From Eledone cirrhosa (Eukaryota), in the NCBI GenBank assembly GCA_964016885.1, contig OZ024740.1, positions 155,372,001-155,436,000 on the forward strand: DNA of 64,000 nucleotides, read 5' to 3'. Shown piece after piece: positions 11-45,124 of the stretch; the stretch's first letter is position 1; every line of letters begins with the position of its first letter. The translations under genes and the position numbers were made by a program. The notes beneath the pieces were generated by a model. It searched no databases. It was not told the origin of the DNA and worked only from the letters and a program-made list of their open reading frames with translations.

Positions 11-3000
11 TTAGGTAAGGCGGGTCTTCTCTGTTACTGAGTACCGCCAAAGGTCTCGGTCCAGTGACATTGTCTTGGAGAGGTGTAAGTGTGTGATGTC
101 GGAGTTTATCAGCTCGTCCCAGGTTTTTCTAGGTCTGCCTATTCCATGACTACCGTCTATCTTTATTGCCCTGCACTTTGTTATACAGCTATCGACTTTC
201 ATGCGCATCACGTGTCCATACCAACGTAGCCTTCTCTCGAGTAAACAACATCTGATCCCTCTTATCTCTAATTTTTTCCTTAGTTCGTTTATGCTTTGCC
301 GTTCACGTATATTACTGTTACACATCCAGCGGAGCATGCAAGCTTCGTTCCTCTCTAGTCTGCGTATATCCTCTGCACACAATGCCCATGTCTCACTGCC
401 ATGCAACATTGCTGTTCGTATGCAGGCATCGTACAACCTGCCTTTCATTTTTAGGGAGAACCCTTTAGCAGCTAATAGTGGTATAAGCTCTCTGAACTTT
501 TTCCAACCAGTTCTGACTCTAGCTACAGTACTTTCAGAGCACCCTCCCCCACTGCTGATTTTATCGCCCAGGTAACGGAAGCTGTCCACTATTTCTATAG
601 AACCCTCTGCGCAATTGAAAGAGCTAGTATTTTGTGGGCACTTGCTGCTACTTATTGCACCAGAACACCGGCCACATGTAAAATCTATGTTCTTAGTTAG
701 CTTACCTGTGATCCCACTACATCTTTTATGCACCCATACTTTGCATTTAGGACATAAAATGGAGTTTCTACCTACGCCTTTCCTACACACCGAGCACGAC
801 CATTTCCCAGAAGGGATCGCCGCCTTGTTTTCTTTCCTACAAACTAGAACTTTGGTCTTAGCCAGGTTAATTTTAAGTCCTTTTGACTCTAGGCCGTGCT
901 TCCATGTTTGGAATTTCTTCTCTAGCTCGGCCATTGATTCCGCTATGAGTGTCAGGTCGTCTGCGTATAGGAGTTCCCATGGGCAGCCTGTCTTGAACTC
1001 CTCTGTTATAGCCTGAAGGGCAATAATAAATAGTAGGGGGCTGAGAACAGAGCCCTGATGGACGCCAACTTTTACGCTAAACTCTTCACTATATTCGTTG
1101 TTAATTCTAACCTTGCTGACTGTTTCTTTATACATGGCTTGTATAGCCCTCACAAGCCATTCGTCAACGCCTAGTTTTCTAAGAGCCCTCCAGATAATGG
1201 AGTGGGGGACTCTGTCGAAGGCTTTCTCCAAGTCGACAAAAGCTAAGTAGAGGGGTTTACCTTTAGCTAGGTACTTCTCCTGTAGTCGTCGTACTATGAA
1301 AAGAGCGTCTGTGGTACTTTTGCCTGACACAAACCCGAACTGCATTTCATCTAGGTCAATTCTCTCTCTGATTAGTTGCGCTATTACTTTTTCCGTGACC
1401 TTCATGACCTGGTCGATTAATTTAATGCCTCTATAGTTACTCCTATCTAGGGCGTCTCCTTTACCCTTATAACAGTTAACGATGATGCTGCTATGCCAGT
1501 CCTTCGGAACAACCCCATTCTGTACGACTTGGTTAACTATGCAGGTGACCATGGTGTGTCCCACCGTGCCAGATGCCTTCAGCATCTCAGCAACTATTTC
1601 CGAAGGCCCAGCCGCCTTACCCGTCTTCATATCCTTGATTGCCTTACTTATTATACTCCCCTCGACTAACACTGCTGGTCCCTCTATTGGGTCGATATGG
1701 GGGAGACTGTCTTTCTCCCATTTATTCTCCTCATTTAGTAGCCTTTCATAGTGACACTTCCAAGCTACCTTCTTATCAGCGTCGGTGATGGCAAGTGTGC
1801 CATCGTCGTTTAGTACACACTTCTCCCCGACAATATCACGGTTTTCCTTGACGCATTGCCTAGCAATCCTGAACACCTCACGTTTTTGGTCATCGCGTTG
1901 TAGAACATGCTTGAACTTTCTTTCCTCAGCTTCCCTTCTTGCTAAGTACACTTGTCTCCTAGCTTCCCTCCTGGCCACTTGATAGTCTTCTCTACTTCCC
2001 CCATCCCGCCATACTTTCCAAGCCTGCTTTTTGGCCTTAATTGACCCCTCCACCTTACTGTTCCACCACCATGTTACTCTCCTCCTGCCTACAGGCCTGC
2101 TCCAGCCACAGACTTCGTCTGTCGCCAACAGCAGGTTTGCTTTCAGAAATTCCCACTCTCCCTCTATATTGTCCGACTGTAAATGTTCTTCCCTACTGTC
2201 GAAAGCATCAAGTAATATGCTTTGAAATTTATTCCTGGCTGTGGGGTCCTTTAGCTTCCATATTTTTCTCGTGAGGATAGTCCTCTTCTGCTGTCGAGTA
2301 CGTCTCGTCCTGACTATGAGGTCGCTAATTATCAGTCTATGTTGGGAGGTGTATTCTTCATGGGGGAGGGATTTAGTGTTTACAACAGACACTCTGTCAC
2401 GTCTTCTGGTAAGGATATAATCTACCTGGCTTGTGTGTTCCCCGGATCTATAGGTGATCAGGTGATTGTCACGTTTTTTGAAGTTAGTGTTACAGATAGT
2501 TAGGTTATTTGCATCACAGAATTCCAGGATTCTGGAGCTTTCCTCATTTCTAGTACCAAACCCATAGCCTCCATGGATTTCGTCGTAGCCGTCACAATGT
2601 TGTCCAACGTGACCATTTAGGTCGCCTGCAATAATTATATAGTCACTGTCGGATATTTGGGAGGTAGTTAGCATGAGTGTCTCATAGAATCTGTCTTTTA
2701 TAGTGCCGGGCAGTCCGGATTGGGGTGCGTACGCAGATATTACTGTCACCGTAGTTTTATTGAGGACAAGTCGTATTTTAATTATTCTGTCGTTCACTCT
2801 ATTTACGTCTATTATCTTATCTGCCCACTTTTCTGCTACCATGATTCCTACTCCACCCAGCCCATCGTCGTTTCCCACCCAGAAAAGCTTATAACATCGT
2901 TTTTTACCCTCAATGAACCTAGCAGACCCTCCCCTCCACCTGGTCTCTTGAATACAACAAACATCGACCTCCTTACGTTCAAGCATTTCTACAACCTCGT

Positions 3001-3280
3001 TAGCGCGACCCTTTAGGGTGCCTACATTTATGGTACCAACTCTGAAGTTTTGGATTGCGTTTGGGGGTTGGGGGCGGTGGGGGGCGGGGGGCGATGGGGT
3101 TATGTTAGCCGTCCGCGATCGAAACAATGAGGAGTGCTCGCATTCTCGTCCAAGAGGTGAATTTGTCTTTATCTTCGGCATTGTCGCTGAGCGTCCAGAT
3201 TTTTCTCTCTCTCTCCTCCACTCTCCAGGATTCCGCAGTCCATCCATCCATCCATCATATATCGAAAGACAACCAGGCAA
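11..3280 (-). CDS. RTE-clade non-LTR retrotransposon polyprotein: APE endonuclease + reverse transcriptase + PHD finger
   Basis: Uninterrupted 1089-aa ORF with APE motifs (GTINVGTL, CCIQETRW, YAPQ, GDLNGHVG, SQVDYIL, SQHRLI), RT motifs (YRGIKL, QFGF, FVDLEKAFDRV, GVHQGSVLSPLLF, YADD, FRYLG) and RTE-type C-terminus ([18 protein letters not shown]). The true start may be the downstream Met (MPKIK). Confidence 0.95.
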   Translation of the reverse strand: MPGCLSIYDGWMDGLRNPGEWRREREKSGRSATMPKIKTNSPLGRECEHSSLFRSRTANITPSPPAPHRPQPPNAIQNFRVGTINVGTLKGRANEVVEMLERKEVDVCCIQETRWRGGSARFIEGKKRCYKLFWVGNDDGLGGVGIMVAEKWADKIIDVNRVNDRIIKIRLVLNKTTVTVISAYAPQSGLPGTIKDRFYETLMLTTSQISDSDYIIIAGDLNGHVGQHCDGYDEIHGGYGFGTRNEESSRILEFCDANNLTICNTNFKKRDNHLITYRSGEHTSQVDYILTRRRDRVSVVNTKSLPHEEYTSQHRLIISDLIVRTRRTRQQKRTILTRKIWKLKDPTARNKFQSILLDAFDSREEHLQSDNIEGEWEFLKANLLLATDEVCGWSRPVGRRRVTWWWNSKVEGSIKAKKQAWKVWRDGGSREDYQVARREARRQVYLARREAEERKFKHVLQRDDQKREVFRIARQCVKENRDIVGEKCVLNDDGTLAITDADKKVAWKCHYERLLNEENKWEKDSLPHIDPIEGPAVLVEGSIISKAIKDMKTGKAAGPSEIVAEMLKASGTVGHTMVTCIVNQVVQNGVVPKDWHSSIIVNCYKGKGDALDRSNYRGIKLIDQVMKVTEKVIAQLIRERIDLDEMQFGFVSGKSTTDALFIVRRLQEKYLAKGKPLYLAFVDLEKAFDRVPHSIIWRALRKLGVDEWLVRAIQAMYKETVSKVRINNEYSEEFSVKVGVHQGSVLSPLLFIIALQAITEEFKTGCPWELLYADDLTLIAESMAELEKKFQTWKHGLESKGLKINLAKTKVLVCRKENKAAIPSGKWSCSVCRKGVGRNSILCPKCKVWVHKRCSGITGKLTKNIDFTCGRCSGAISSSKCPQNTSSFNCAEGSIEIVDSFRYLGDKISSGGGCSESTVARVRTGWKKFRELIPLLAAKGFSLKMKGRLYDACIRTAMLHGSETWALCAEDIRRLERNEACMLRWMCNSNIRERQSINELRKKLEIRGIRCCLLERRLRWYGHVMRMKVDSCITKCRAIKIDGSHGIGRPRKTWDELINSDITHLHLSKTMSLDRDLWRYSVTEKTRLT

Positions 3281-3764
3281 GCGATAGTATAGGCCTCTGG
3301 CTTCTGATTGGTCCGCGTAATAATACTGGTGATGCGTGGGGGCTCTGGCTTATGATTGGTCCACGTAATAGCAGTGGTGGTGGGCGGGAGAGAGGGGTGT
3401 TGGGTAGCTAGATAGGAGGTAATGATTGAATGGGGTCCTTGCACATTTAACAAGCGATTAACAAAAATACAAAATTTGTTCTGTTCAATACGACCAAAAG
3501 CTTTCGTATCTAACAATTAATGATAACAAAAAATGTAGATTGTTTTAGCGATAGATTGGCTATTTGGACTTGATACGAAATATGGATTGTTTTGAAAATA
3601 CGCTAGAATTAGGAATTGAGGAGGTAGAGATGAATACGCTAGAATTAGGAATTGAGGAATTAGGATTGTGGAGGTAGAGATGAAGGAAAATATGTACATT
3701 ACGTTACATGAATATCGTGGGGTAGACAGCAAAGCAATGAAATTTGGCGAAGTGAATTCCTATC

Positions 3765-29577: not shown

Positions 29578-30245
29578 CACACACACATGTTCATATATAG
29601 AGAATGTGTATGTATATGTGACTGTGTATGTTTGTGTGCGTCTATGTGTGTGTAAAAGACCCTTGAATTGAAAAAAAATTACCATTACCTGAACAATGTA
29701 ACTGGTAGCAGAACAAAGGTGGATTCATTACATATCATTTTTTTTTGACAGATAAATCTATATTGATGTCCTTGTGTGGTACTATATAGATTTAGTTTCA
29801 GATGTCAGGGGATATAGAAAGATAGACTGCTAAATTGAGTCAGAGAAGAAAAAAGATAAAGAGGTAGATAGACAGTCAGAGGAGAAAAGAGAAAGACAAA
29901 TAGAGTTGTAGAAGAGATTGGATGGATAGATAGATAGGTAGGTAGCTAGATGGATAGATAGGTAGGTAGATAGATAGGTAGCTAGATGGATGGATAGATA
30001 GAGGGGTTGATAGATATGTTTCTTTATTAGCCACAAGGGCACAAAGGAAGGGGACAAATACAAAGGGGGAAGTTTACATACAATAAAAACGTTTAAAATG
30101 CTATCATAAATTTAATTTAAAAATTAATCGATTTTCCTCAATAGGGGGAGACATTTCATATGGGTAACACATACCCCCGAAAAAATGTGCAGCCCTGATC
30201 TCCAGGAGTACGAAGAGTTTGTACCCCTTTCCTCTCTTCCTCTAT

Positions 30246-33200
30246 CTACAGGCTGATACAGAGAGAAGGCCCATTCACTCGGACCATTCTCGCCACTTTC
30301 ACCCACCTTTCATAAAACTTGCTGGGGTACAGCACCTCTCTCTCCATCCTGATTCTTCTTCCAAAGTTGTATTTGAAAAAAAGAATCAGTTGTTGGCCGG
30401 GGAGAAAGTTGTCTGACCTCAGCCCTTTTAACCTCGTCCACCATACAACCTCTTTCGCCATAGCTATCACACAAAGGAAAACCACCTCTCCTTCGTTTTT
30501 GAAGGAGGGTGGCGGTTTGATCATGACAATGGACTCGGTGGTCAACCGGATTAGTCCCACCCGCGACAATAGTCGTTCTACATAGCTCCACAGGTCGGTA
30601 ACGCCCGGGCAGTGTAAGAATGCGTGCGCGACGGTTTCTTCGTCTCGCATGCACCTCGGACAGATCTTTTTCGAAGGGTTCCTGCCCGAGCGCCCATGTC
30701 TGTAGCGCTTGTCTCGAACCGGTAGAGCTCCTCGGTAGCACTGCCAGGCCAGGGACTTTTGGAAGTTGTCTATCGGTCCCGGGAGGAAGGTCCTACCGAA
30801 CAGACTGGCCAGTTCGTCTTCCTCTACGCCCAGAGTTTCACCGAGCACGTCGTCGCACTTGCTGCGGATCAACCCTCTATAGAATGACGAAGTGGAGTCT
30901 CCACTGATCGCCGGGTCCGCCTGCCAGAGGGCTGTGAACGCCTGAGCACATTCGATGTGCCAGTCGCCCATTTTCCTCGGTCTTTGCTTGACCCAGGACC
31001 GCAGCTCGGTCAGCGAGACGAGTCGTGGGAAGGCTCGCTTCACGAACGGGGCCCACACCGGTTGTCCGGTGAGGATTACGTAGAGATGCCGCAGCCTGAG
31101 CGCGTGTTTGCGCATTGTCAGCTACAGCATCACCAGCCCTCCGTTGGAAGCAGATGAATCTTCTCACCAAAGGAGCCGGCCTCTTCCAAAGGAATTGGAA
31201 GGGCGCGCGCTCCATTTTGGTCAGCGTTTTGGCTGCACGACGGTCAAGCGGTAATAGATAGCAAACGCTATAAAAGTGTTCGCCACCTGCGCTCGACCTT
31301 TCAAGGATAGTTTGCACTCGGCCCACTTCTGGGTGAGTGCAAACACCTTGGCCGTCACCTCGTTCCAGCTCTTCTCCACCTGGAGGTCCGGACCAAACCA
31401 GACTCCGAGCAGCTTTACCGGTTCTTCCGTCCAGCATCCGACGACGCCATCAGAAGGCATCGGTTTGCCTCTCCTCGATCCAAGTTGCAAACTGATGGAC
31501 TTGTCCTGGTTCAGCTTCGCTCCTGTGAACCTTTCGTATTCCTGCAGTAAGATTCCGACTTCCTCGATTTGCGAGGTGCTCGACACCATTACTGTCACGT
31601 CGTCGGCGTAGGCTGATGCCGCTTTCCGCAGTTCCGGTTCCGGAGGGATGCCCTGAAATAGCTCCAACTTCCATAGTAGTGACTCGAGAGTCAGTACGTA
31701 CAGCAGGGAGGAGAGAGAACATCCCTGTCGAATGGATCGCGTGATATGGAACGGCTCCGAGAGATAGCCATTCACCTTGACCCTTGAGCAGATGTTGCTG
31801 TTGTGCATTGCAGCAATCCAGCCCCTGAACGCAGGTCCGAAGCCTGCTGCCTCGAGCACCACATCCAGGTAATGATGGTCAACCCTATCGAAAGTCTTAG
31901 ACTGATCCAAGTTGATCAGGACCCCACCAAAGCAGGTTTTACACCATACGTTCTCTAAGATGTATCGCATGAGGTGGAGGTTGTCGTGTATGGACCTGGT
32001 CGGGATTGCGCATGTCTGTGCTTCTCCCACCAGGTTCTCTACGACAAGCGCCAGCTTCTTTGCCAACACCTTGGCCAAAATCTGTAACTCTGTGTTTAGC
32101 AGAGTTATGGGCCGGAAGTTGCCTATGTCATCCCCCTTATTCTCGTCCTTCCTGACTAGTGTGACTACGCCCCCGGTCACAGAACTGGGAATTCTCCCAT
32201 TCTGCTGCCAGTTGCAGTAGACCGCTTCCAGGAGACCGGACAATAAGTCCGGCATTGCTACGTAAAATTCGTAGAGTAGACTGTCGAGACCTGGAGATTT
32301 GCGTTTGCCGCATTGGCTCAGCGCGTCCCCTATCTCAGCAGCTGAAATCGGCTTTTCACAGAACTCCGCCTCGCCGTCCGATAGTCGCGGTAGGCCGTCG
32401 AGGTATGGACCAAAATCCATAGCCCCTCCCAGCGCACTGCCCTGCCCGAACAGTTGACCAAAGTGCCGCTGAAAGGCCACACACATCTGCTTCGGCTCAC
32501 GTATCACGTCTTGGTCTTTCAAAGACCGAATCGTGGACTTGTTGCCACTTTTTGCCTCCGTCACCCGGGCCCAGCTAACAGTTTTGGCTCCCTCATGATC
32601 CTTCAGATCACAAACTACTGACCTGCATAGAACCCATAGACAAGGTTGATAGAACCCATAGACAAGGACCTTGATAGAACCCATAGACAAGGACCCAGCT
32701 ACTAGAAGCTGAACTTGTCGTTACCGACATGCAAAGTCTACAGTAGACGGATTAGCACTTTAGTTAAACAGCACTTGACAGGGGCCATTGTCAACAACAG
32801 ATGGTGGTACTCTCTCAAGAGGGCAGTTAGATTAGACTCATTAGTTTTTAGTAAAGAATTAGCGTTAGATAGAAATAGGACCGAGAAGGAACTGGTAGAT
32901 AAAGTAGAAGAGACAATTAGAAGTGGCAACGCAGCCCTCGTGCTTTGCGTCGAAGAACTGGTCCAAGGCCGTTCTCGTTGCTAGCACGCTGGTTACGTTT
33001 CCACTTATAATTGCCTCTTTATCTACCAGTTCCTTCTTGGTCCTATTTCTATCTAATGCTAATTCTTTACCAAAAACTAATGAGTCTAATCTAACTGCCC
33101 TCTTGAGAGAGTACCACCATCTGTTGTTGACAATGGCCCCTGTCAAGTGCTGTTTAACTAAAGTGCTAATCCGTCTACTGTAGGCTTTGCATGTCGGTAA

Positions 33201-33866
33201 CGACAAGTTCAGCTTCCAGTAGCTGGGTCCTTGTCTATGGGTTCTATCAAAGTTGACCATGCAGGTCACTAGTTTGTGATCTGAATAGGCAACCATGAAC
33301 ATTTGTGGACAGCTTAACATGTCCCTATCCTTATTTCTAACTAGAACCCTATCTAGGTACGATCTAGATGTTCCGCTGCGATTAGTCCACGTCCACAGTG
33401 GCTCAGTCGGAAAATCCAGTCGATATCTATCGGCCAGGTCAAATCGGCCGATTAACTGTTTGAGGCTGTTACACACCCCTTTATCAGGACATGCCCCTAC
33501 ATAGTCCCAACGTGCATCTAGGATTCCATTCCAGTCCCCCACTAAAAGCAAGGAGCGGGACGTTCCCAGAAAAGTCTCTAGACGTTTGAAGAAGTCTGGT
33601 CGCGGTGTCCCGGATGGGGCATATGCGGCCACCAGCCTGAAGGCTCCACCTTCACTACCGTCATTGTTGAGGACCACCAGTCGACCCTCCGGGTCCAGAT
33701 GTACCGTCTGTGTTACGAGGCCCAGCTGTCGCTCGCTGCGGATCCTGAACTCGCAAATGGTTACTACATCCATACTGTGCGACCTGAGGTCATTTAAGAG
33801 TTTGCCCTGTTTCCAGGGCATCCCCTGGCCGCGTACATTCACACATCCAACTCTTATATTGGCCAT
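30246..33866 (-). pseudogene. Copy A ORF2 (APE endonuclease, RT, C-terminal zinc finger) with frameshifts, a deletion and an inverted duplication
   Basis: CVNVRG, AYAPS, VGDWNG, SYLDRVLV, YSDHKLV, YWKLN; KSPGLD, FRPITLLN, IRQGC.LS, AYADDVTV; CPRC...EETVAHAFLHC. Confidence 0.92.
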
Positions 33867-33873
33867 GTTGGTT

Positions 33874-33907
33874 CTGAAAAGTTAAAAGAAGAGAAGAAAA
33901 CACTCAC
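33874..33907 (-). promoter_or_regulatory. Splice donor plus branch/polypyrimidine/acceptor cassette between ORF1 stop and ORF2 start
   Basis: GAG|GTGAGTGTTTTCTTCTCTTCTTTTAACTTTTCAG|AACCAACATG. Confidence 0.55.
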
Positions 33908-35691
33908 CTCTTCGTCTTCCGGGGATCAGGCCGCACGATTTCCATGGGGGTGTTAGAGGGGTTGTCTGGGTGGGTGGTGGTTTCTGGCGGGGTGGGGATG
34001 GAGATGTTTGGTGGGGAGGTGGTGTCTGGGGTGAGGGTGGGGAGGCGGTGTCTGGGGTGAGGGTGGGGAAACTTTTTAAAAGGACGCGGTTAATGGGTTT
34101 AACACAAGGATACCCACGTCCTGAGGAAAGTTTTCCTTTAAAGACTTATAGGTGTCCGTAGGGACCCTAATCATCTTTAAATTAGGTTTGTCTACACAGT
34201 TCGAAAAAGTTTCCCCTTCGGTTTTCACCGAAGGGTCGTTGGAGATGACCTCCATTAAACTTTTATTTTTACTGTTTATGTATGTGTAATGTTCTTGTTG
34301 TGTTGCGGTGGTTTTTGTCTGTTGTTCTTGTGGGAGCTTTCGTTTTGTTGTAGGTGTTTGGAGTGATGTCGTGGTTTTGTTTTCGGGACGGGGGGTTTTT
34401 GTTTGTAATGTTTGTGTTGGTGGTTGTATGTTTGTAGTGATGTTTGTTGTTTTTTTGTTCTTGTGGTGTCTTTTCTTCTTTCTTTTCGAACGGAGAGGCT
34501 CTCCCTCATCATCACTTGGTGATGATGAGGGGGCCTCGCCCATTGTGGTGTCTGTGTTATTTGGAAGGGGTATGTTTTGGGGAGTTGTTGTGTCTGTGGG
34601 TGTTTTTCCAGTGGTTTTAGGTGGAGTGGGGTTGCAGGTTGGTTTGTTGTTTTTGTTTTGGTTATGTTTGCGTGTTGTTTTTGTTGTGGTGGTGGTGGAG
34701 GTTGTGTTGTTGTTTTGGGTGTTGGCAGTAGTGCCTCTTTTTTTTTTTTAAGTTAACTGAGGACAGTGACCACTGCTTAAACAGTGGTAACATGAAGGCC
34801 GCCTACCCTCAACAGAAATGTTTATGTGTGAAATTCCATCCAGAGGCACACGTTGGGGTATTTTAGCTATCCATTCTGGCCTCATTTGGACCAGAACTTC
34901 CATGCTTGTACTATTGAATGTGCCTCTGGAGGACTTTAACACCGAAATGATGGTGTCTTCATCGAAATCGATGAAGCCAGTTAAAATCCACCAGACGTTT
35001 ACATTTGGTGCAATGTTCAACATTTTTATCTTTTGTGTCCTTTTTCCCATATATGTGGGGAAAAAGGTGTAAAGGGGGGACACAATCGGCGATACAGAAT
35101 ATTTTTGTGCTGTCAATTGGTCTTTCAACAACACCGAAATGCTTCCAAAAAGTATTCCTTTTTGGATGAAGGCAATATCCTTCATGAAATTCTTCAGAAC
35201 CAGTTCAATGTCGTTTTGGGATAATTGAACTGGTTTTTTCGACACATTTGAAACCGTCCTAAAAATTACTGTTTTTAGAACAGTTTCTCTGCGTAACTGT
35301 TGAGAAGAAGTGATGCTGAAAAGTTACATACTGTTTTGCATCACTTAACATTTCCCTAGCATTGGAAATGTCAAGGTATGTGAACAGTTCCGTCTTTTGG
35401 ACGGTTTGAGCAAAGGAAATCTTTTCCTTGTTCATGGAGTTGTTGTTGGTGGTGTTGTTGTTATCATTGTTGCTATTGTTTTCTTGTTGTCATTATTGTT
35501 GTTGTTTATATCTTGCATGTTATTGGTGTTAGTGTTGATGTTACAATCAATGTCCGACATCTTGTTTTCAAAACTGACACATTTTCGATGTCTTTCAATG
35601 AGGTGGTGAGAGGAGGTGACTGCGAACTTAACACTCTTACCGCTTCTCCACCACTTCTAGTACTGAACGCAGCGTCTATGACTGAATCCAA
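33904..35691 (-). pseudogene. Copy A ORF1 (Tx1-type nucleic-acid-binding protein with zinc knuckle), frameshifted
   Basis: Homologous to 42264-43589 (FIQK..L.GS.S.L.KD, FFPTYMGK.TQ, VEGRRPSCY.C); reconstructed C-terminus ends MEIVRPDPRKTKR*. Confidence 0.8.
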
Positions 35692-35802
35692 GATTTATTT
35701 ACAATTTTTCCACCGATGAAATTTTTCAAATGAAAATTTCACCCCCAAGAAGGGGTGAAGATGACTTGACCCACCATCTGAAAGTTCAGACGTGGGGTCA
35801 AG

Positions 35803-35870
35803 CTATAAAATAGTATCAAATTTAACAATAAATTTTTGATTTCTTACTTAGAAAATCAGCAAAAACTTAC
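35803..35870 (-). promoter_or_regulatory. Putative 68-nt spliceosomal intron in the 5' UTR of copy A
   Basis: CTG|GTAAGTTTTT...GATACTATTTTATAG|C; positionally equivalent to the 67-nt segments in copies B and C. Confidence 0.65.
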
Positions 35871-35902
35871 CAGCAAACTGGCACACGTAGTGGATAGATA
35901 GA

Positions 35903-36003
35903 TTTCTATTTATTGCCACTAGGGCACAAAAGAAGGGGACAAATACAAGGGGGGAGTTTACACAAAAAGGCGAGTAAAGAAAACAAATAACAAATATAAA
36001 ATG
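35903..36003 (-). mobile_element. Short 3'-end stub of the Tx1-like family
   Basis: TTTCTATTTATTGCCACTAGGGCACAAAAGAAGGGGACAAATACAAGGGGGG matches the 3' terminus of copy A (30018-30080). Confidence 0.8.
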
Positions 36004-36173
36004 ATAGGTAGGTTGGTAGGTAGATGGGTGGGTAGATAGATGGATAGATAGGTAGGTAGGTAGAGATAGATAGATAGATAGGAAGGTAGAGATAGATAGA
36101 TAAGTAGGTAGGTAGATGGATAGATAGATAGGAAGGTAGAGATAGATAGGTAGGTAGGTAGATGGATAGATAT

Positions 36174-39100
36174 GTTTCTTTTATTTGCCATCAGGGCATC
36201 AAAAGTGGGACAAGTACAAAGGGGGGAGTTTACAAAACAAGGCGTCCTCAATAAGGAGGAGGCAATAACAAAATATAAAAATAAAATAAAATATAACAGA
36301 ATAAAATTTATAACAAAATCCTCAATAGAGAGGAGGCGCCTTGGGGGGTCGCACACACCCCCGAAAAAAGTGTGCAACCCTTTTCCTCAGGAGCACAGAG
36401 AAGGGGTTCTCCCTTGGTCTTTCATCTTCCTCACCTATAATCTGATGTAGAGTGAAGGCCCATTCACACGGGCCATTCTCGCCACTTTCACCCATCTTTC
36501 GTAAAAACGGCTGGGGTGCAGCACCTCTCTCTCCATCCTGATCCTTCTTCCGAAATGATATCGGAAGAAACGGACCAGTTGTTGGCCAGAGAGAAAGGTG
36601 TCTGACCTCAGTCCTTTCAGATGCGTCCACCATACAACCTCTTTCGCCATGGCTATTACGCACAGAAACACCGTCTCTCCTTCGTTTTTGAAGAGGGGAA
36701 GCGGCTTGATCGTTACAATAGACTCGGTGGTCAAACGGATCGGTCCCACCCTTGACAGCAGTTGTTCGACATAGCCCCACAGATCAGCAATGCCCGAGCA
36801 GTGTACCAATGCGTGTGCAACGGTTTCCTCGTCGCACACGCATCTGGGACAGATCTTTTTCGAGAGGTCCCTACCTGGGCGCCCGTGTCTGTAGAGCCTT
36901 TCTCGAACGGGCAGAGCCCTTCTGTAGCACTGCCAGGCCAGGGAACTCTGGAAGTTATCCATGGGTCCCGGGCTGAATGTCCTACCGAACAGGTTGGCCA
37001 GTTCGTCTTCCTCCATGCCTAGGGCTTCTCAGAGGGCGTCGTCGCACCTGCTAACCACCAGCCCTCTATAGAATGACGAGGTGGTTTCTCCACTGACAGT
37101 CGGGTCCGCCTGCCAGAGACCCGTGAGCGCCTGGGCACACTCGGTGTGCCAGGCGCCCAGTTTTCTCAGTCTTTGCTTGACCCAGGATTGCAGCTCGGTG
37201 AGTGAGACGAGTCTGGGAAAGGCTCGTCTCACAAACGGGGCCCACACCGGTTGACCGGAGAGGAATACTTGGAGGTGCCGTAGCCTTAATGCGTGTTTAC
37301 GGATCATTAGCCACGGCATCCCCAGCCCTCCTTTCGAAGGGTGTTGACAGCAGATGGATCTCCTCACCATAGGAGCCCGCTTCTTCCAAAGGAATTGGAA
37401 GAGTGCGCGCTCCATTTTGGCGAGCGTTTCCCTTGGGCAAGGCACAACGGTCAGGCGGTAGTAGATGACGGACGCTATATAAGTGTTCGCCACCTCCGCC
37501 CGACCTTTCAGGGACAGTTTGCACTCGGCCCACTTCTGGGTCAGTGCAAACACCCTGTTCGTTACCTCACCCCAGTTCTTCTCCACCTGGAGGTCTGGTC
37601 CGAACCAGACCCCGAGCAACTTCACCAGGCCCTCCGTCCAGCGCCCGACGACGGCATCGGAGGGCATCGATCTGCCCCTCCACGTGCCGAGTTGCAGACC
37701 GATCGACTTGTCCCGGTTCAGCTTAGCCCCTGTAAACCTTTCGTACTCCTCCAGTAAGGTGCCGATCACCCCGATTTCCGAGGCCGTAGGCACCATTACT
37801 GTTACGTCGTCGGTGTAGGCCGACACCGCTTTCCGCAATCCCGGTTCCAACGGGATGCCCTGCAACAACTCCAACTTCCGCAGCAGCTCTAGAGTCATTA
37901 CATACAGAAGGGAGGAAAGAGGGCACCCCTGTCGGATGGAATGCGCGATTTCGAACGGCTCCGAGAGGTAGCCGTTCACCTTGACCCTAGAGCAGATGCA
38001 GCTGCTGTGCATGGCATTGATCCAGCCCCTGAAAACGGGTCCGAAGCCTGCCGCCGCTAGCACCGCATCCAGGTAACCATGGTCGACCCTATCCAATGCC
38101 TTAGATTGATCCAAGTTGATCAGGGCCCCACCAAAGCCGGGTTCGTTCCCAACCCTCTCTATGATGTATCGCATGAGGTGGAGGTTGTCGTGGATGGACC
38201 TGGACGGGATAGCACATGTCTGCGCATCTCCCACCAGGTTGCCCACGACAAGCGCCAACCTCTTTGCTAGCACCTTGGCCAAAATCTGTAACTCTGTATT
38301 TAGCAGAGTTATGGGCCTGAAATTATTTATATCGTCCCCCTTGTTCTCGTCCTTCCTCACTAGCGTGACTACACCCTTGGTCACAGCACAGGGAATTCCC
38401 CCGTTCTGTTGCCAGTTGCAGTAGACCGCCTCGAGGAGATCGGGGAACAAGTCCGACATAGCTAGATATAGTTCGTATGGAAGACCATCGAGACCCGGGG
38501 ATTTGCGTTTGCCGCATTGGCTCAGCACGTCCTCTATCTCAGCAGCTGAAATCGGCTCCTCGCAGGACTTCGCCTCCCTGTCCGAGAGACGCGGCAGGCT
38601 GTCGAGGTATGGACCGAAGTCCACATCCCCAACCGGCTCCCTGCCCCTTCCGAACAATCCGGCAAAGTGTTTTTGAAAAGCCTCGCACATCTACTTAGGT
38701 TCAAGGATCAACCGTCCATCCTGGTCTCGCAAAGACCGGATAGTGGATCTGCTCCCTCTTTTGGCTTCTGTCACGCGGGCCCAGCTAACAGCTTTGGTCC
38801 CCTCATTTCCCAGAGCACGTATTTTGCTTCGGACGATGCAGCCTTCGTGTTTCACATTGAAGAACTGGCCCAGGGCCGTTCTCGACACTAGCACTCTGGC
38901 CACGTCGCCGCTTCTAATTGCCTCTTCTACACTATCTACCAACTCCCTTTCCTTCCTATTTCTATTTGAGGCTAACTCCTTACTAAATTCTATAGAGACT
39001 ACTCTAATCTCTCTTTTGAGAGATCCCCACCACCTGCTGTTGACGATGGCGCCCGTCAACCGCTCCTTAACTAAAGTGCTAATCCGGTCCCTGTAAGCCT

Positions 39101-40466
39101 TACTTGCCGGTAAAGACAAGTTGAGCTTCCAGTAACCAGGTCCCTGTCTATGAGTTCTGTCAAGGTTGACCATGCAGGTCACTAACTTGTGGTCTGAATA
39201 GCCAACCATGCGCATTTTTGGACAACTTAAAAAGTCCTTATCCTTAATTCTAACTAAGAATCTATCTAGGTACGACCTAGATGATCCGCTACGATTTGCC
39301 CAAGTCCAGGTTGAAAGTTTGATCATCCAGTATGACGCGTTCAGGGATCTGGGCGATCCTTTCGGGCCTCATTTGAACTACAAGTTCGAGGCTCGTTCCA
39401 CTGAACGCGTTACCCGATGTCTTTCCCATGGACACCAGTGTGTCATCATCCAAGTTCAGGAAACCTGTCAAAACCCACCATATGTCCATAATCGGCAGGA
39501 TGGTGTGGATTTTTATTTTTTGTGTTCTTCTACCCATGTACGTAGGGTAGAAGGTGTATGCGGTGGATGTGATTGGTTTGATGGACAGTTTCACTGCTGT
39601 GTCCCTGTCCTTCATGAGAATGGATAGACTCCCGTAGAGTCTATCCTTCTGAATGAAGGTGATGTCCTTCATGACGTCTTTTAAAACCAGCTCTATCTCA
39701 CTCTGTGATGGTTGAGCTGGTTTTTTGCTTTTATTTGAGATTGTCCTAAACATGACAGTGTTTAGGAGTCTCTGGCTTTTTAGTTCTGGGGGGGGGGGGG
39801 GGAATGGATCTTGAATGAACCATTTTCCCCGTACACTATATATTTTTTGGCATCTGCCAATAGCTCCTTCGCTTTGGTTATATCTACTGGCAGATAGTCG
39901 AGGGTTTTCCTTGCCGTCTGGGCGAAGGAGGCCCTTTCCCTGCTTGTGTTGCTGTTGTAGTTGGTGGTGTTGTTGCTATCATTGTTGTTGTTATCACAGT
40001 TATTGGTCTTGTTGTTGTTATTGTTATTGGTGTTGTTTTCGTCCATGGCATTGTTGTTGTTGTTGTTGCTGGTGCCTCTGGTTCTTTGGTTTGTTGCCAT
40101 GGCAACGTCAAGTTGTCAGTCAGCAAGTGGAGAAAATCCTTCCTCTGGCTGACCTTTGTTTTTGACCTCTGCTACTGTGACAGTGGCAGGGGGAAGCTGT
40201 AAGTTTATCTTCCCCTTTCCTCCTTCGAATTTTGGTGAAGAAGCTTCAGCCATTTTAAAAAATGTTAACTTTTCAACAAGAAAAAACTTTTTTTGTTTAA
40301 CTATTTCGCCTAAAGGCGTAGAATATTTTGAGAGACTGACCAGATCAAAGTTTGACCTGGCAGTCCCTCTACAAAATGGTACAAAAATTAAAGTTTACAA
40401 ACAAGAATTTCTATAGAAATTTAAACAGAACTTACTCAGCAAGTTATACGCTTGTGTCCATCCCAG
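36174..40466 (-). mobile_element. Tx1-like LINE copy B; internal deletion removes ORF1 C-terminus and endonuclease N-terminus (junction about 39313)
   Basis: ORF1 part 39313-40254 joins directly to TWTWANRSGSSRSYLDRFLV; ORF2 36435-39313 has stops and AYTDD. Confidence 0.92.
40369..40435 (-). promoter_or_regulatory. Putative 67-nt spliceosomal intron in the 5' UTR of copy B
   Basis: TGA|GTAAGTTCTG...CTTTAATTTTTGTACCATTTTGTAG|AG. Confidence 0.68.
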
Positions 40467-42263
40467 AGATATAGATAGGTAGATGGATAGATAGATAGGA
40501 AGGTAGAGACAGATAGATAGGTAGGTAGGTAGAGATAGATAGATAGATAGGAAGGTAGAGATAGATAGATAGGTAGGTAGGTAGATGGATAGATAGGAAG
40601 GTAGAGATAGATAGGTAGATAGGAAGGTAGAGACAGGTAGATAGGAAGGTAGAGACAGATAGATAGGTAGGTAGAGATAGATAGATAGGAAGGTAGAGAT
40701 AGATAGATAGGTAGGAAGGTAGAGATAGATAGATAGGAAGGTAGATAGATGGATAGGTAGGTAGAGAGATAGATAGATAGGTAGGTAGGTAGAGATAGAT
40801 AAATAGGAAGGTAGAGATAGATAGATAAGTAGGTAGGTAGATGGATAGATAGGAAGGTAGAGATAGATAGATAGGTAGGTAGGTAGGTAGAGATAGATAG
40901 ATATGTTTCTTTTATTTGCCATCAGGGCATCAAAAGTGGGACAAGTACAAAGCAGGGAGTTTACAAAACAAGGCGTCCTCAATAAGGAGGAAGCAATAAC
41001 AAAATATAAAAATAAAATAAAATATAACAAAAAATAAAATTTATAACAAAATCCTCAATAGAGAGGAGGCGCCTTGCGGGGTCGCCCCCCCCCCCCCGAA
41101 AAAAGTGTGCAAGCCTTCTCCTCAGGAGCACAGAGAGGGGGTGCTCCCTCGTTCCTTCCTCTTTTCCACCTACAGGCTTATGTAAAGAGAAAACCCATTC
41201 ACACGTGCGATTCTCGCCACTTTCACCCACCTTTCATAAAAACGACTGGGGTGGAGCACCTCTCTCTCCATCCTGATCCTTCTTCCGAAATGATATCGGA
41301 AGAAACGGACCAGTTGTTGGCCAGAGAGAAAGGTGTCTGACCTCAGTCCTTTCAGACGCGTCCACCATACAACCTCTTTCGCCATGGCTATTACGCACAG
41401 AAACACCGCCTCTCCTTCGTTTTTGAAGAGGGGAGGCGGCTTGATTGTTACAATAGACTCGGTGGTCAAACGGATCGGTCCCACCCTTGACAGCAGTTGT
41501 TCGACATGGCCCCACAGATCGGCTACGCCCGATCAGTGTACCAATGCGTGTGCAACGGTTTCCTCGTCGCACACGCATCTGGGACAGATCTTTTTGGCGG
41601 GGTCCCTACCCGGGCGCCGGTGTCTGTAGAGCTTTTCTCGAACGGGTAGAGCCCCTCAGTAGCATTGCCAGGCCAGGGACTTCTTGAAGTTGTCCATGGG
41701 TCCCGGGCTGAATGTCCTACCGAACAGGTTGGCCAGTTCGTCCTCCTCCATGTCTAGGGCTTCTCCGAGGGCGGCGTCGCACCTGCTGCGTACCAGCCCT
41801 CTATAGAATGTTGCGGTGGATTCGCCACTGACAACCGGATCTGCCTGCCAGAGGGCGGTGAGCGCCTGGGCACACTCAGTGTGCCAGGCGCCCAGGGGGG
41901 GGGGGATTTTTTAGGAGGGCGCGGTTGATTGGTTTGGCGCGGGGGGGGGGGGGGGGGGCACATCCTCCGTGAAATTTATTTTCAGTGTTTTATAAAAGTT
42001 CATTGGGACTTTAATCATTTTTAAATGAGGTAGTCCCACAGCAGTTATAAAGTTAGGCCCTTCAGTTTGGACCGAAGGGTTTGATGAAATTGTTTTCAGT
42101 AGTTCTTTGTTGTCTGTGTTCATGTATGTATATTGTAAAGTCTTTTTTTGTGTAGCAGTTAGTGTTGTGTGATGGGGAGGGGTGGTTTGTATATAGTTTG
42201 TGTTCTCTTGGGGAGGGTTAAAGTTAACAAGTGTGTCTGTGGTGCGCCTCCTCTTCTTTCTTT

Positions 42264-43384
42264 TTACTGTTTGGAAGGGATCTTTTTCGTCTTGCGACGA
42301 AAGGGGTTCGTCTTCTTTGTTGGGTGGGAGGGGTATGTTTTCTGGTAGTGTTTGCGGTGTGTGTGTTTTTGTATTTGTTTTGGGTGGGGAGGGGTTGGGT
42401 GGGACAGTATTCTGTGTTGTTTTTCACGTGTTTGTTGTTGTTGTGGTGGTGGTGGTGTTGTTGGTTTTTGTTGTTGTTGTGGTTGTTTTTGTTGTTGTTG
42501 TTGTTGGGGTGGTGTTGGTGTTGGTAGCAGTGTTGTTTTCTGTGTGAGCTGGGGACAGGCAGCCCTCAGGTTACCTCTATTGCCACAGAGGTAACAGGAG
42601 GGACGCCTACCCTCCACAATAATATTGAGGTGGGTACGGTCATCCAGCATGACGCGCTCAGGGATTTGGGCGATACGTTCTGACCTTATTTGTGTCAGAA
42701 CTTCGATACTCGTTCCACTGAACGCATCGCCAGATGCCTTCCCTATTGAAATGAGGTTGTCCTCGTCTAAATTGAGGAAACCGGTTAGTAACCACCAGTA
42801 GTTTATGTTTGGGGTGATGGTGGTTATCCATATTCTCTGGGTTTTTTTACCCATGTAGGTGGGGAAGAAGATGTAGTGTGTGGAACGAATTGGCGACACA
42901 GAGTATTTTTTCGCCGCCAATTCGTCTTTCATCAATATGGATAAACTCCCATAGAGTTTATCCTTTTGTATGAAAGTGATGTCTTTCATCGCTTCTTTCA
43001 GTACTAACTGAATTTCAGCTTGAGATGGTTGTGCTGGTTTTTTTGTTTTATTTAAAATTGTACGGAATACGACAGTTCGTAATTCCGTCTGTTTTTTTAG
43101 TTCTGGAGGTGAATTTATAGAAAACGAACCGTTTTCGCCAAAAGATAAATATTTTTTGGCTTTTTCCAGCATTTCTTTGGCTTTTGAAATATCTTCAAGC
43201 ACATAAGTGACTGATAATTTAGCCGTTTGTGCAAAAGATATTTTGTTTTCGTTGTTGGTGTTTGTATTGTTTTGTTTCTCATCGTTTGAGTTGTTTTCAT
43301 CTTTGTTGTTGTTGTCTTTCTCGTTTGGTGTGTGGATACTTGTGACGTTTGTGTTGTTGTTGTTTTTGTTATCTTTATTGTTGC

Positions 43385-43415
<31 letters not shown>

Positions 43416-43589
43416 TTCAGTTTCTTGTATAGTTGTGGCTACATCAAGTTGTCGGTCAACAGGTGAAGAAAATTCTTCCTCTGGCTGACCTCTGCCTTTG
43501 GCATCTGCTGCTGTGACAGTGGCAGGGGGAAGCTGTGAGTATGACTTCCCTTTTCTTTCTTTGAATGTTGGTGAAGATGCTTCAGCCAT
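42264..43589 (-). CDS. Copy C ORF1 protein (N-rich low-complexity N-terminus, conserved core, degenerate zinc knuckle CYLCGNRGNLRAAC); C-terminal part frameshifted, homology continues to about 41900
   Basis: Long ORF starting MAEASSP; homologous to ORF1 of copies A and B. Confidence 0.82.
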
Positions 43590-43721
43590 TTTTATCAAAA
43601 TATGATTTTTCGAAATTTTTCGAAATTTTTTGAAAGATAAAATTTTTACAACACTATTTCGCCTAAAGGCGTAGAATATTTTGAGAGACTGACCAGATCA
43701 AAATTTGACCTGGCAGTCTCT

Positions 43722-43788
43722 CTACAAAATGGTACAAAAATTAAAGTTTACAGTTCACAATTTCCAGATAAATTTAAACGAAACTTAC
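43722..43788 (-). promoter_or_regulatory. Putative 67-nt spliceosomal intron in the 5' UTR of copy C
   Basis: TCG|GTAAGTTTCG...CTTTAATTTTTGTACCATTTTGTAG|AG. Confidence 0.68.
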
Positions 43789-45124
43789 CGAGCGAGCTCA
43801 GCACATGTGTCTATCCCAAGACTGATAGATTAGAGACAGATAGATAGGTAGGTAGGTAGATGGATAGATAGATAGGAAGTTAGAGATAGAGAGATAGGAA
43901 GGTAGAGATAGATAGATAGATAGGTAGGTAGGTAGATGGATAGATAGATAGGAAGGTAGAGACAGATAGATAGATAGGTAGGTAGTTGGATAGATAGATA
44001 AATGGATGGATAGATAGATAGATAGGTAGGTAGGTAGATGGATAGATAGATAGGAAGGTAGAGACAGATAGATAGATAGGTAGGTAGTTGGATAGATAGA
44101 TAAATGGATGGATAGATAGATAGATAGGTAAATAGATGGATAGATAGAGGGAGACAGAAAGGAAGACAGAGTTTTCTCTTTATTCAGAGAACAGAAAAGA
44201 TTTAAAGTAATTCCAACTGTGCCAGATTAGGTAAATATAATTTGACAATATGAGTGAAAAACTGAAAAATGATTCAATGTGGAGGAAAGGTGATAGATAA
44301 GGATTAAAATATTTCAAAAAATGAATATAGGTTTTGAAAGGTCCACATATGATAAGCTTTTGTAAATAGAATAAAATAAAATGAGATATGTAGATTTTAT
44401 TTTCATTTAAAGATTTCAATGGTATTATAAGCATGACTTAGTGGTGATAGTGGTTATGGAAGCAGAGTGATAAAGAGAGTGAAAAGGCAAGACAGATAGA
44501 GAATGAGCATATGCAAATGATAGATAGGACTCTCTTTCTTTTGCAAACACACACACAAATACATGATCAATAAAAACGGATAAAAATCACAAACAATTAA
44601 ACTAGAATACTCAGTATATCATGTAGAGAGAGTACATTCATTTATTTAAAATCTAACTGTTACAGGTGTAATTCTGTTTCTGCCAGTTAAGTATCCATCA
44701 GCTGCTCTCTGAAGAATTCTCAACTGAAAGAAACAGAACTACTCCAATAAGAGTCACCTCTTAAATACATTAACATATGCACACACGTGGGATAAATGAA
44801 CAAACGCAGCCAAGCTCCTCATCAGCCACTACTCAGGCAATAGATTTTCTTGCATAAAAGTGGGATTGTATAATATTGAGCCCAAGTTGTATGATGGCTT
44901 GAGTAAACCACTGGAAAGATGTGTATGAGACAACACAACATCACTGTGACAGAAGAACGCAACAAAGTATTTTTCAACAAATAAGAATAGAAAGTCTTAC
45001 GACGGGAAACAGAACAGGATAGAGTATAGGCAATCAGACAAGTTGTGTAAAATCTAACACAGGAAGGAAGGAAATATATGTACATATATATGTGTGTGTG
45101 TGTGCATATATAAATATATATATA

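Follow-up and report, generated by a model that had tools for sequence, protein, structure and literature searches.

This report concerns a window of 64,000 nucleotides (nt) from Eledone cirrhosa (GenBank assembly GCA_964016885.1, contig OZ024740.1, positions 155,372,001 to 155,436,000), and in it the 5' leaders of three long interspersed nuclear elements (LINEs), where an intron-like segment ends at the base of a 40-nt hairpin. The elements, copies A, B and C, are of the non-LTR type (LTR, long terminal repeat) and lie on the minus strand in head-to-tail tandem with (GATA)n tracts between them. All three are broken. "The window" denotes the whole stretch, and positions refer to it. Their open reading frames (ORFs) encode, where preserved, an apurinic/apyrimidinic endonuclease (APE) and a reverse transcriptase (RT).

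30017..35891 (approximate ends), minus strand: LINE copy A, flanked by (GATA)n; ORF2 with APE, RT and zf-RVT, broken; internal inversion
36172..40466 (3' end approximate), minus strand: LINE copy B; an internal deletion fuses mid-ORF1 to early ORF2
40905..43819 (3' end approximate), minus strand: LINE copy C; ORF1 from 43589, ORF2 mostly deleted

The architecture is ORF1 followed by ORF2, with the features of APE-type non-LTR elements of the L1/Tx1 group. The Pfam domains Exo_endo_phos, RVT_1 and zf-RVT are found in that order in copy A, and RVT_1 and zf-RVT in copy B. LTRs are absent, AATAAA stands at the 3' end, and 5'-truncated copies exist. Insertion is into a specific simple repeat, with TATC-type flanks at most aligned 5' ends (162/170, a count that is partly circular since the repeat was used to locate the 5' ends). 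No Pfam family of note was matched by ORF1, which also had no homolog at E <= 0.001 among 858 candidates of 242-772 amino acids (aa). Among the 120 proteins listed as relatives of ORF2, the closest named one is from Argonauta hians (62%) and none is labelled Tx1; these LINEs are presumably of the Tx1 kind. Early ORF2 of copy A also contains an internal inverted rearrangement, about 590 nt long (about 32670-33250).

At the 5' end of the element, the leader (about 170 nt in total) opens with an exon-like segment roughly 30 nt long. In the window copies, a GTAAGT donor follows 67-68 nt upstream of the hairpin start:

35871..35891, minus strand: first exon-like segment of copy A, short, with a 5' end slightly truncated relative to the family; carries the ACGTG motif, which resembles a downstream promoter element (DPE)
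35803..35870, minus strand: intron-like segment of copy A, 68 nt, with GTAAGT donor, branch-point-like TTAAA at -19, U-rich tract and TAG
40369..40435, minus strand: intron-like segment of copy B, 67 nt
43722..43788, minus strand: intron-like segment of copy C, 67 nt

Related leaders were collected from the 3.0 Gb genome. Candidates numbered 429 in family A, 1261 in B/C, 659 in D, 791 in F and 817 in G, with 40 scored per family; each family sample consists of the best 30 among 429-1261 candidates and is not a random draw. Further leaders came from five copies of family E and one copy each of H, I, J and G2. In a comparison of seven representatives from three leader groups, between-group identity reached 0.78 in the final 13 nt of the intron, 0.77 at the donor and 0.67 at a branch-point motif of yTnAy-like form (-18 to -20); the remaining intron gave 0.27-0.41 and exon 1 gave 0.33. 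The intron in this position (type I) measures 67-69 nt in 7/7 representatives, with GT donor, branch point, U-rich tract and YAG at fixed spacing. With peaks of identity at the donor, the branch point and the acceptor and a nearly constant length, the pattern reads as a signature of selection on splice signals. In family G, the donor is GGTAAG in all 15 rows displayed (the tally gives GTAAG in 15/21, the other six being mis-parsed); the tallies of families C and B include copies picked for being mutated at the AG. The TAG of the window copies is a putative 3' splice site, at which no splicing was seen. A GACRY-like motif also lies 20-24 nt upstream of this first donor, about 10-15 nt from the 5' end of the element, in the window (35884-35889, 43806-43811) and in the family leaders. 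If this motif is a DPE, transcription would begin inside the flanking TATC repeat.

Two hairpins follow the intron-like segment in each copy:

35764..35803, minus strand: hairpin 1 of copy A, 40 nt, -25.0 kcal/mol; G1, the last intron base, pairs with U40
40330..40369, minus strand: hairpin 1 of copy B, 40 nt, -26.4 kcal/mol; G1 pairs with C40
43683..43722, minus strand: hairpin 1 of copy C, 40 nt, -27.3 kcal/mol; G1 pairs with C40
35738..35759, minus strand: hairpin 2 of copy A, -14.5 kcal/mol
40307..40318, minus strand: hairpin 2 of copy B, -4.5 kcal/mol; loop end TAG|G
43660..43671, minus strand: hairpin 2 of copy C, -4.5 kcal/mol; loop end TAG|G

The original prediction placed a 40-nt hairpin that includes the acceptor G at each of these three sites, with a smaller second one nearby, and folding confirmed both. 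The first base of hairpin 1 is the G of the TAG in copies A, B and C. Its stability corresponds to z = -6.0 (A), -7.1 (B) and -8.4 (C), computed on the hairpin extended by one base upstream and two downstream, and 0/300 dinucleotide shuffles were as low; in each copy it is the most stable 40-nt window in its context of roughly 340 nt. The acceptor G is paired with a predicted probability of 0.95-0.99, and the A of the same AG is mostly unpaired (0.06-0.19). A self-cleaving ribozyme (HDV-like or hammerhead) was considered for this region and rejected: Rfam over 35400-44000 gave 10 matches at E <= 5, none of them a ribozyme and none near the gathering score, and no core of this kind was seen by eye.

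The hairpins had been described as different sequences, copy A sharing no evident primary sequence with B and C. This proved wrong. Copies A and C align without gaps over the whole leader with 60/127 identical positions (shuffle mean 35.9, maximum 56 in 10,000) and over hairpin 1 with 19/40 (shuffle mean 10.1, P 0.002). Since B and C are identical at 38/40 positions of hairpin 1, the three window copies amount to two data points of one homologous structure. In the lower stem, 4/9 pairs (2-39, 3-38, 8-33 and 9-32) are swapped compensatorily when A is compared with either B or C; pair 4-37 also changes on both sides in the A-C comparison. Independent hairpin sequences are thereby refuted, and a convergent origin is rejected by the ungapped leader alignment together with the compensatory pairs: the hairpins of A, B and C are, on sequence comparison, one homologous structure.

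Twelve leaders align nearly ungapped across the acceptor and the hairpin. When the copy A structure is imposed on them, the fraction of the 191 cells that pair is 78.5%, compared with 65.8 +/- 2.0 in shuffled data (0/500), and 8/16 pairs change on both sides (12/500 shuffles); the leader rows are related, so these pairing counts are not probabilities. Over four families, the introns have 19 variants common to at least three copies and 81 private ones; for hairpin 1 the respective numbers are 4 (1 pair-breaking) and 60 (37 pair-breaking; Fisher p 0.022). Given that pairing exceeds the shuffles and that inherited stem-breaking variants are depleted, hairpin 1 is by these comparative measures a conserved RNA structure, though weak in F, H and I. 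Conservation of structure across families, as had been proposed, is thus borne out by compensatory changes among related leaders. A bulged U near hairpin position 31-32 is common to the leaders. Hairpin 2 is found in nearly all of them, including D; a form with a 5' arm of pyrimidines and a loop that ends in YAG|G occurs in B, C, D, F, G, H and part of the E copies (among the loci are L073, L080, L070 and L084), whereas A and I lack it. This YAG|G loop is possibly a second masked acceptor. One family F copy (L252) has a deletion that takes out hairpin 2 almost exactly, as if reverse transcription had skipped the stem.

The tie between hairpin and acceptor was followed across the families. In 8/8 AG-bearing family representatives, the acceptor G has a predicted pairing of 0.88-0.99, reached in three ways: G1-U40 in A, G1-C40 in B, C and J, and a shifted register with the C one base nearer in E, G and G2 (and in H and I in context). 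Family F has GA at the first donor and AA at the acceptor in 25/25 copies and keeps the hairpin with the base of the stem open (0.16). Family E has lost the first donor and kept the AG (5/5). A GTRAGT stands 34 nt upstream of the hairpin in 5/5 copies of E and 24/25 of F, and a YAG lies 60 nt from the shifted donor in D (23/27), E (5/5) and F (25/26). In E and F, this YAG sits in the 3' arm of hairpin 1, and a second one at 91-92 nt lies in hairpin 2; in D, the donor is 60 and 91 nt from two AGs in 21/27 copies. The 60-nt AG is predicted to be paired in D, E and F (0.96-1.0), which suggests that in these families the intron moved yet would have stayed masked. Eight F copies (L242, L245-L248, L250-L252) share GCGAGT at the shifted donor, either a small GC-donor sub-lineage or a recurrent mutation.

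The original prediction, in which the hairpin masks the acceptor, thus fared unevenly. Masking is favoured by the predicted pairing of the G in all AG-bearing representatives and its unpaired state in F, which has no AG; retention of the intron, its expected consequence, fits the DNA and the RNA contigs described below. The stricter claim that the hairpin starts at the acceptor in every subfamily does not hold: F is a counter-example, and D has no 40-nt hairpin. The ORF1 tree conflicts with the leader groups, as under module swapping, so the direction of change is not given by the tree, and the view that E and F are derived would follow from leader similarity. The C leader occurs on two ORF1 types, and family E has a leader like that of A and F with an ORF1 that groups with C; such leader/ORF1 swaps (L065:765-2570) point to recombination between subfamilies.

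Spliced copies of the leader were looked for in the genome. None was seen among 851 exact matches to the B/C hairpin seed (0/851, upper 95% bound 0.35%): in 844 the base at -2 is A, and the remaining 7 carry point mutations but retain the intron. With the other probes, non-canonical matches numbered 2 and 1 for A, 1 for exon 1 of C and 11 for F, all of them point mutants or small indels and none spliced. In human L1, spliced copies number 116/6,609, about 1.8% (PMC5860796). At that rate, 0/851 would have a probability of 2e-7. The result is consistent with the retention that had been suggested.

RNA was represented by the contigs of run X4, judged to be RNA only from the small size of the run and one exon-exon join; the run is contig-only, with unstranded contigs from which rare forms are dropped. 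Two contigs cross the leader acceptor unspliced, one B-like (depth 31.5), which extends about to the 5' end of the element, and one A-like (depth 2.5). No leader-intron joint is among the X4 joints listed. Against the C-family leader of L065 there was likewise no joint, and since 772-827 is uncovered, this is no evidence either way. The unspliced contigs support retention weakly.

A second donor lies at the end of ORF1, where copy A also has a potential distal acceptor:

33902..33907, minus strand: GTGAGT donor over the ORF1 stop codon of copy A; the same site is spliced to a host exon in copy L064 (X4)
33874..33901, minus strand: pyrimidine tract and CAG upstream of the ORF2 ATG (33866), 34 nt from the donor; family-specific

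Of 87 ORF2 starts examined, 78 have a GGTRRG donor that overlaps the ORF1 stop. In several families the overlapped stop is TGA, TAA or TAG, each compatible with the donor consensus. One X4 contig follows ORF1 of copy L064 to this donor and continues in a host exon 22.5 kb away; the assignment to L064 rests on 18/18 alignable variants (20 tested), where other copies match 5-10. The host exon is unique; upstream of it lie a pyrimidine tract and CAG, and it codes for a Sulfotransfer_2 domain. Because the join to this exon falls exactly at the donor, the ORF1-stop donor is a working splice site and X4 behaves as RNA. The use of this donor is seen towards a host exon only, and L064 has no leader, so its join says nothing on the leader intron. 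The 5'-truncated copy lies among sulfotransferase-like exons (L064:5314-7285, L061:1502; G000:C3:34982285 to 35004768), with a depth of 115 for the join contig; no fusion protein is expected, because its ORF1 has a premature stop. The distal ORF2 acceptor that masking had been thought to favour is not conserved: an AG between the ORF1-stop donor and the ORF2 ATG is present in 29/32 copies of one junction type and in 3/55 others. A general splice from exon 1 to ORF2 is likewise not supported. Copy L065, which lacks most of ORF2, was considered as an ORF2-spliced copy and rejected, as its break precedes the donor.

The reading we favour, with moderate confidence, is that these LINEs carry a conserved intron-like leader segment of 60-69 nt, followed by a conserved hairpin in which pairing of the acceptor AG is predicted and which likely blocks excision from the RNAs that serve as templates. 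A stem at the 3' splice site can hinder recognition of the AG and the docking of exon 2. Here, a stem of about -25 kcal/mol beginning at the last intron base would act in this way, so that full-length RNA would keep the leader intron and pass the leader on at reverse transcription. Donor and branch point could still recruit U1 and early spliceosome factors, which would aid transcription of the element or control of its 3' end. Rare spliced molecules would not be used as templates, probably because they would also lose ORF2 through the ORF1-stop donor and serve as ORF1 message. A bolder form of the proposal, which we put forward tentatively, is a heritable 'decoy intron': a complete spliceosomal intron with its acceptor locked in a stem, the lock being re-made as the donor moved. 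Its benefits would be U1 loading, escape from surveillance of intronless RNA and a separate spliced ORF1 message, and it would never be lost in reverse transcription.

Several observations weigh against the favoured reading. On the side of the structure, a control structure slid by -1 still pairs in 59.7% of cells, and RNAalifold keeps 6 consensus pairs at -0.62 kcal/mol, the cause being slipping registers. The twelve leader rows represent about three leader lineages from one genome, with few covariation events; hairpin 1 has z of only -1.4, -0.5 and -1.5 in F, H and I; and D lacks the 40-nt hairpin as such and has a leader that does not align significantly with the others. On the side of splicing, it was only in hindsight that the shifted 60-nt intron was recognised in D, E and F, and family F, the youngest and very young (97-99% identity, 791 candidates), thrives without the first donor or the first AG. 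After type I splicing, the last G of exon 1 would usually rebuild the same stem base. No leader joint was seen, and the unspliced X4 contigs fit an RNA that is never spliced equally well. Finally, the conserved donor of human L1 is kept for a transcription-factor site and not for splicing (PMC5860796).

Much of this fits a different account, possible if improbable in our estimation, in which the hairpins are a cis-signal of their own (for ORF1p or ORF2p binding, 5'-end completion or translation control), the upstream motifs are sites for an internal promoter, U1 or proteins that never serve as an intron, and the start at the AG is an inherited coincidence. Family F would then retain hairpins 1 and 2 without the AG because they serve another role, the presence of hairpin 2 in nearly all leaders including D and the common bulged U would be expected, and neither a spliced DNA copy nor an RNA joint would appear, as none did in the probes and contigs searched; the L1 donor, kept for RUNX3 binding, offers a parallel. 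However, such a signal leaves the conservation peaks on donor, branch point (-18 to -20) and YAG at 67-69-nt spacing to be explained, decay of the AG and of its pairing is confined to a lineage that has lost the first donor, and the 60/91-nt spacing from donor to AG recurs in D and F.

A third account, which we judge unlikely, has the leader spliced routinely to yield an ORF1-only subgenomic mRNA from which the leader intron and ORF2 are both removed, similar to GAG of Ty1/Copia elements, with the hairpin tuning the ratio. The donor over the ORF1 stop in 78/87 ORF2 starts, which is used in RNA, and the Copia precedent (PMC5580714) speak for it. Yet no leader joint was found and the deeper X4 contig is unspliced; there are 0/851 leader-spliced retrocopies, although such an mRNA would retain the 3' tail; and the sole join observed runs to a host exon, from a leaderless copy. 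That an AT-rich leader merely mimics splice sites beside neutral inverted repeats is very improbable: the window does hold only two independent sequences, the families all share descent and branch-like motifs arise easily in AT-rich DNA, yet chance does not account for z of -6 to -8, the compensatory changes, the depletion of inherited stem-breaking variants and the conservation peaks.

Two further elements were noted. Positions 11-3349 of the window (minus strand) hold another LINE type, with an uninterrupted 1112-aa frame containing APE, RT and an inserted PHD finger. Elsewhere, L062:1947-4133 is an open frame of 728 aa that starts MQILSKGLKFTP, which by its motif we take to be probably a Penelope-like element.

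The masked leader intron that we favour can be set against known systems. The microsatellite-targeting Tx1 LINEs (Kibi, Koshi and crocodilian Tx1; PMC4494074) are similar in being two-ORF APE/RT elements that insert into simple repeats and form head-to-tail stacks. They differ in that the target here is (GATA)n/(TATC)n, and the accessible parts of that account mention no leader intron or splice-site hairpin; the placement of our elements in Tx1 is presumed. Human L1, with its spliced 5' untranslated region and spliced integrated retrotransposed elements (SpIREs; PMC5860796), likewise has a conserved donor near the 5' end, RNA that is mostly unspliced and a structure suggested to hide the site. 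There, however, the sites are cryptic by-products with varying acceptors, and spliced forms make up about 2% of full-length copies, whereas the LINEs studied here conserve all the signals of a short intron, masking is predicted for the acceptor and 0/851 are spliced. In murine leukaemia virus (MLV; PMC2794156), a stem of exchangeable sequence keeps genomic RNA unspliced; that case is a retrovirus with experimental evidence at a 5' splice site, whereas ours is a non-LTR element with a stem, predicted only, at a 3' splice site. The Ty1/Copia element EVD, with its shGAG RNA (PMC5580714), keeps an intron in full-length RNA, has a donor that ends the first ORF and shows splicing-free functions of U1, including control of termination; it differs in being an LTR element with the intron at the GAG/POL border, and no acceptor hairpin is mentioned in the accessible parts. 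A possible benefit of a locked intron is indicated by HUSH (PMC8770142), from whose silencing intronless retro-elements are shielded by unspliced or 3'-splice-mutant introns, although that work concerns human cells and gene-derived introns and the protection does not need recruitment of the spliceosome. Introns are also described in antisense TART RNA (PMC1636488). No report of a conserved LINE leader intron with an acceptor hairpin was found in the literature searched, outside which lay subscription papers, Repbase and supplements, and the main text of PMC13282606 does not mention introns or splicing.

The phenomenon is therefore known in part, as control of retroelement splicing by structure; what is new here is the combination of a putative leader intron and an acceptor hairpin in a LINE. 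Retrotransposons are expected to lose introns through RNA copying, and leader splicing in human L1 gives dead-end copies. Natural variants are at hand in family F, without the AG, and in D, E and F, with a shifted donor. If true, the reading would show how an intron can persist in a non-LTR element, here in a group that has several thousand candidate full-length leaders in this genome.

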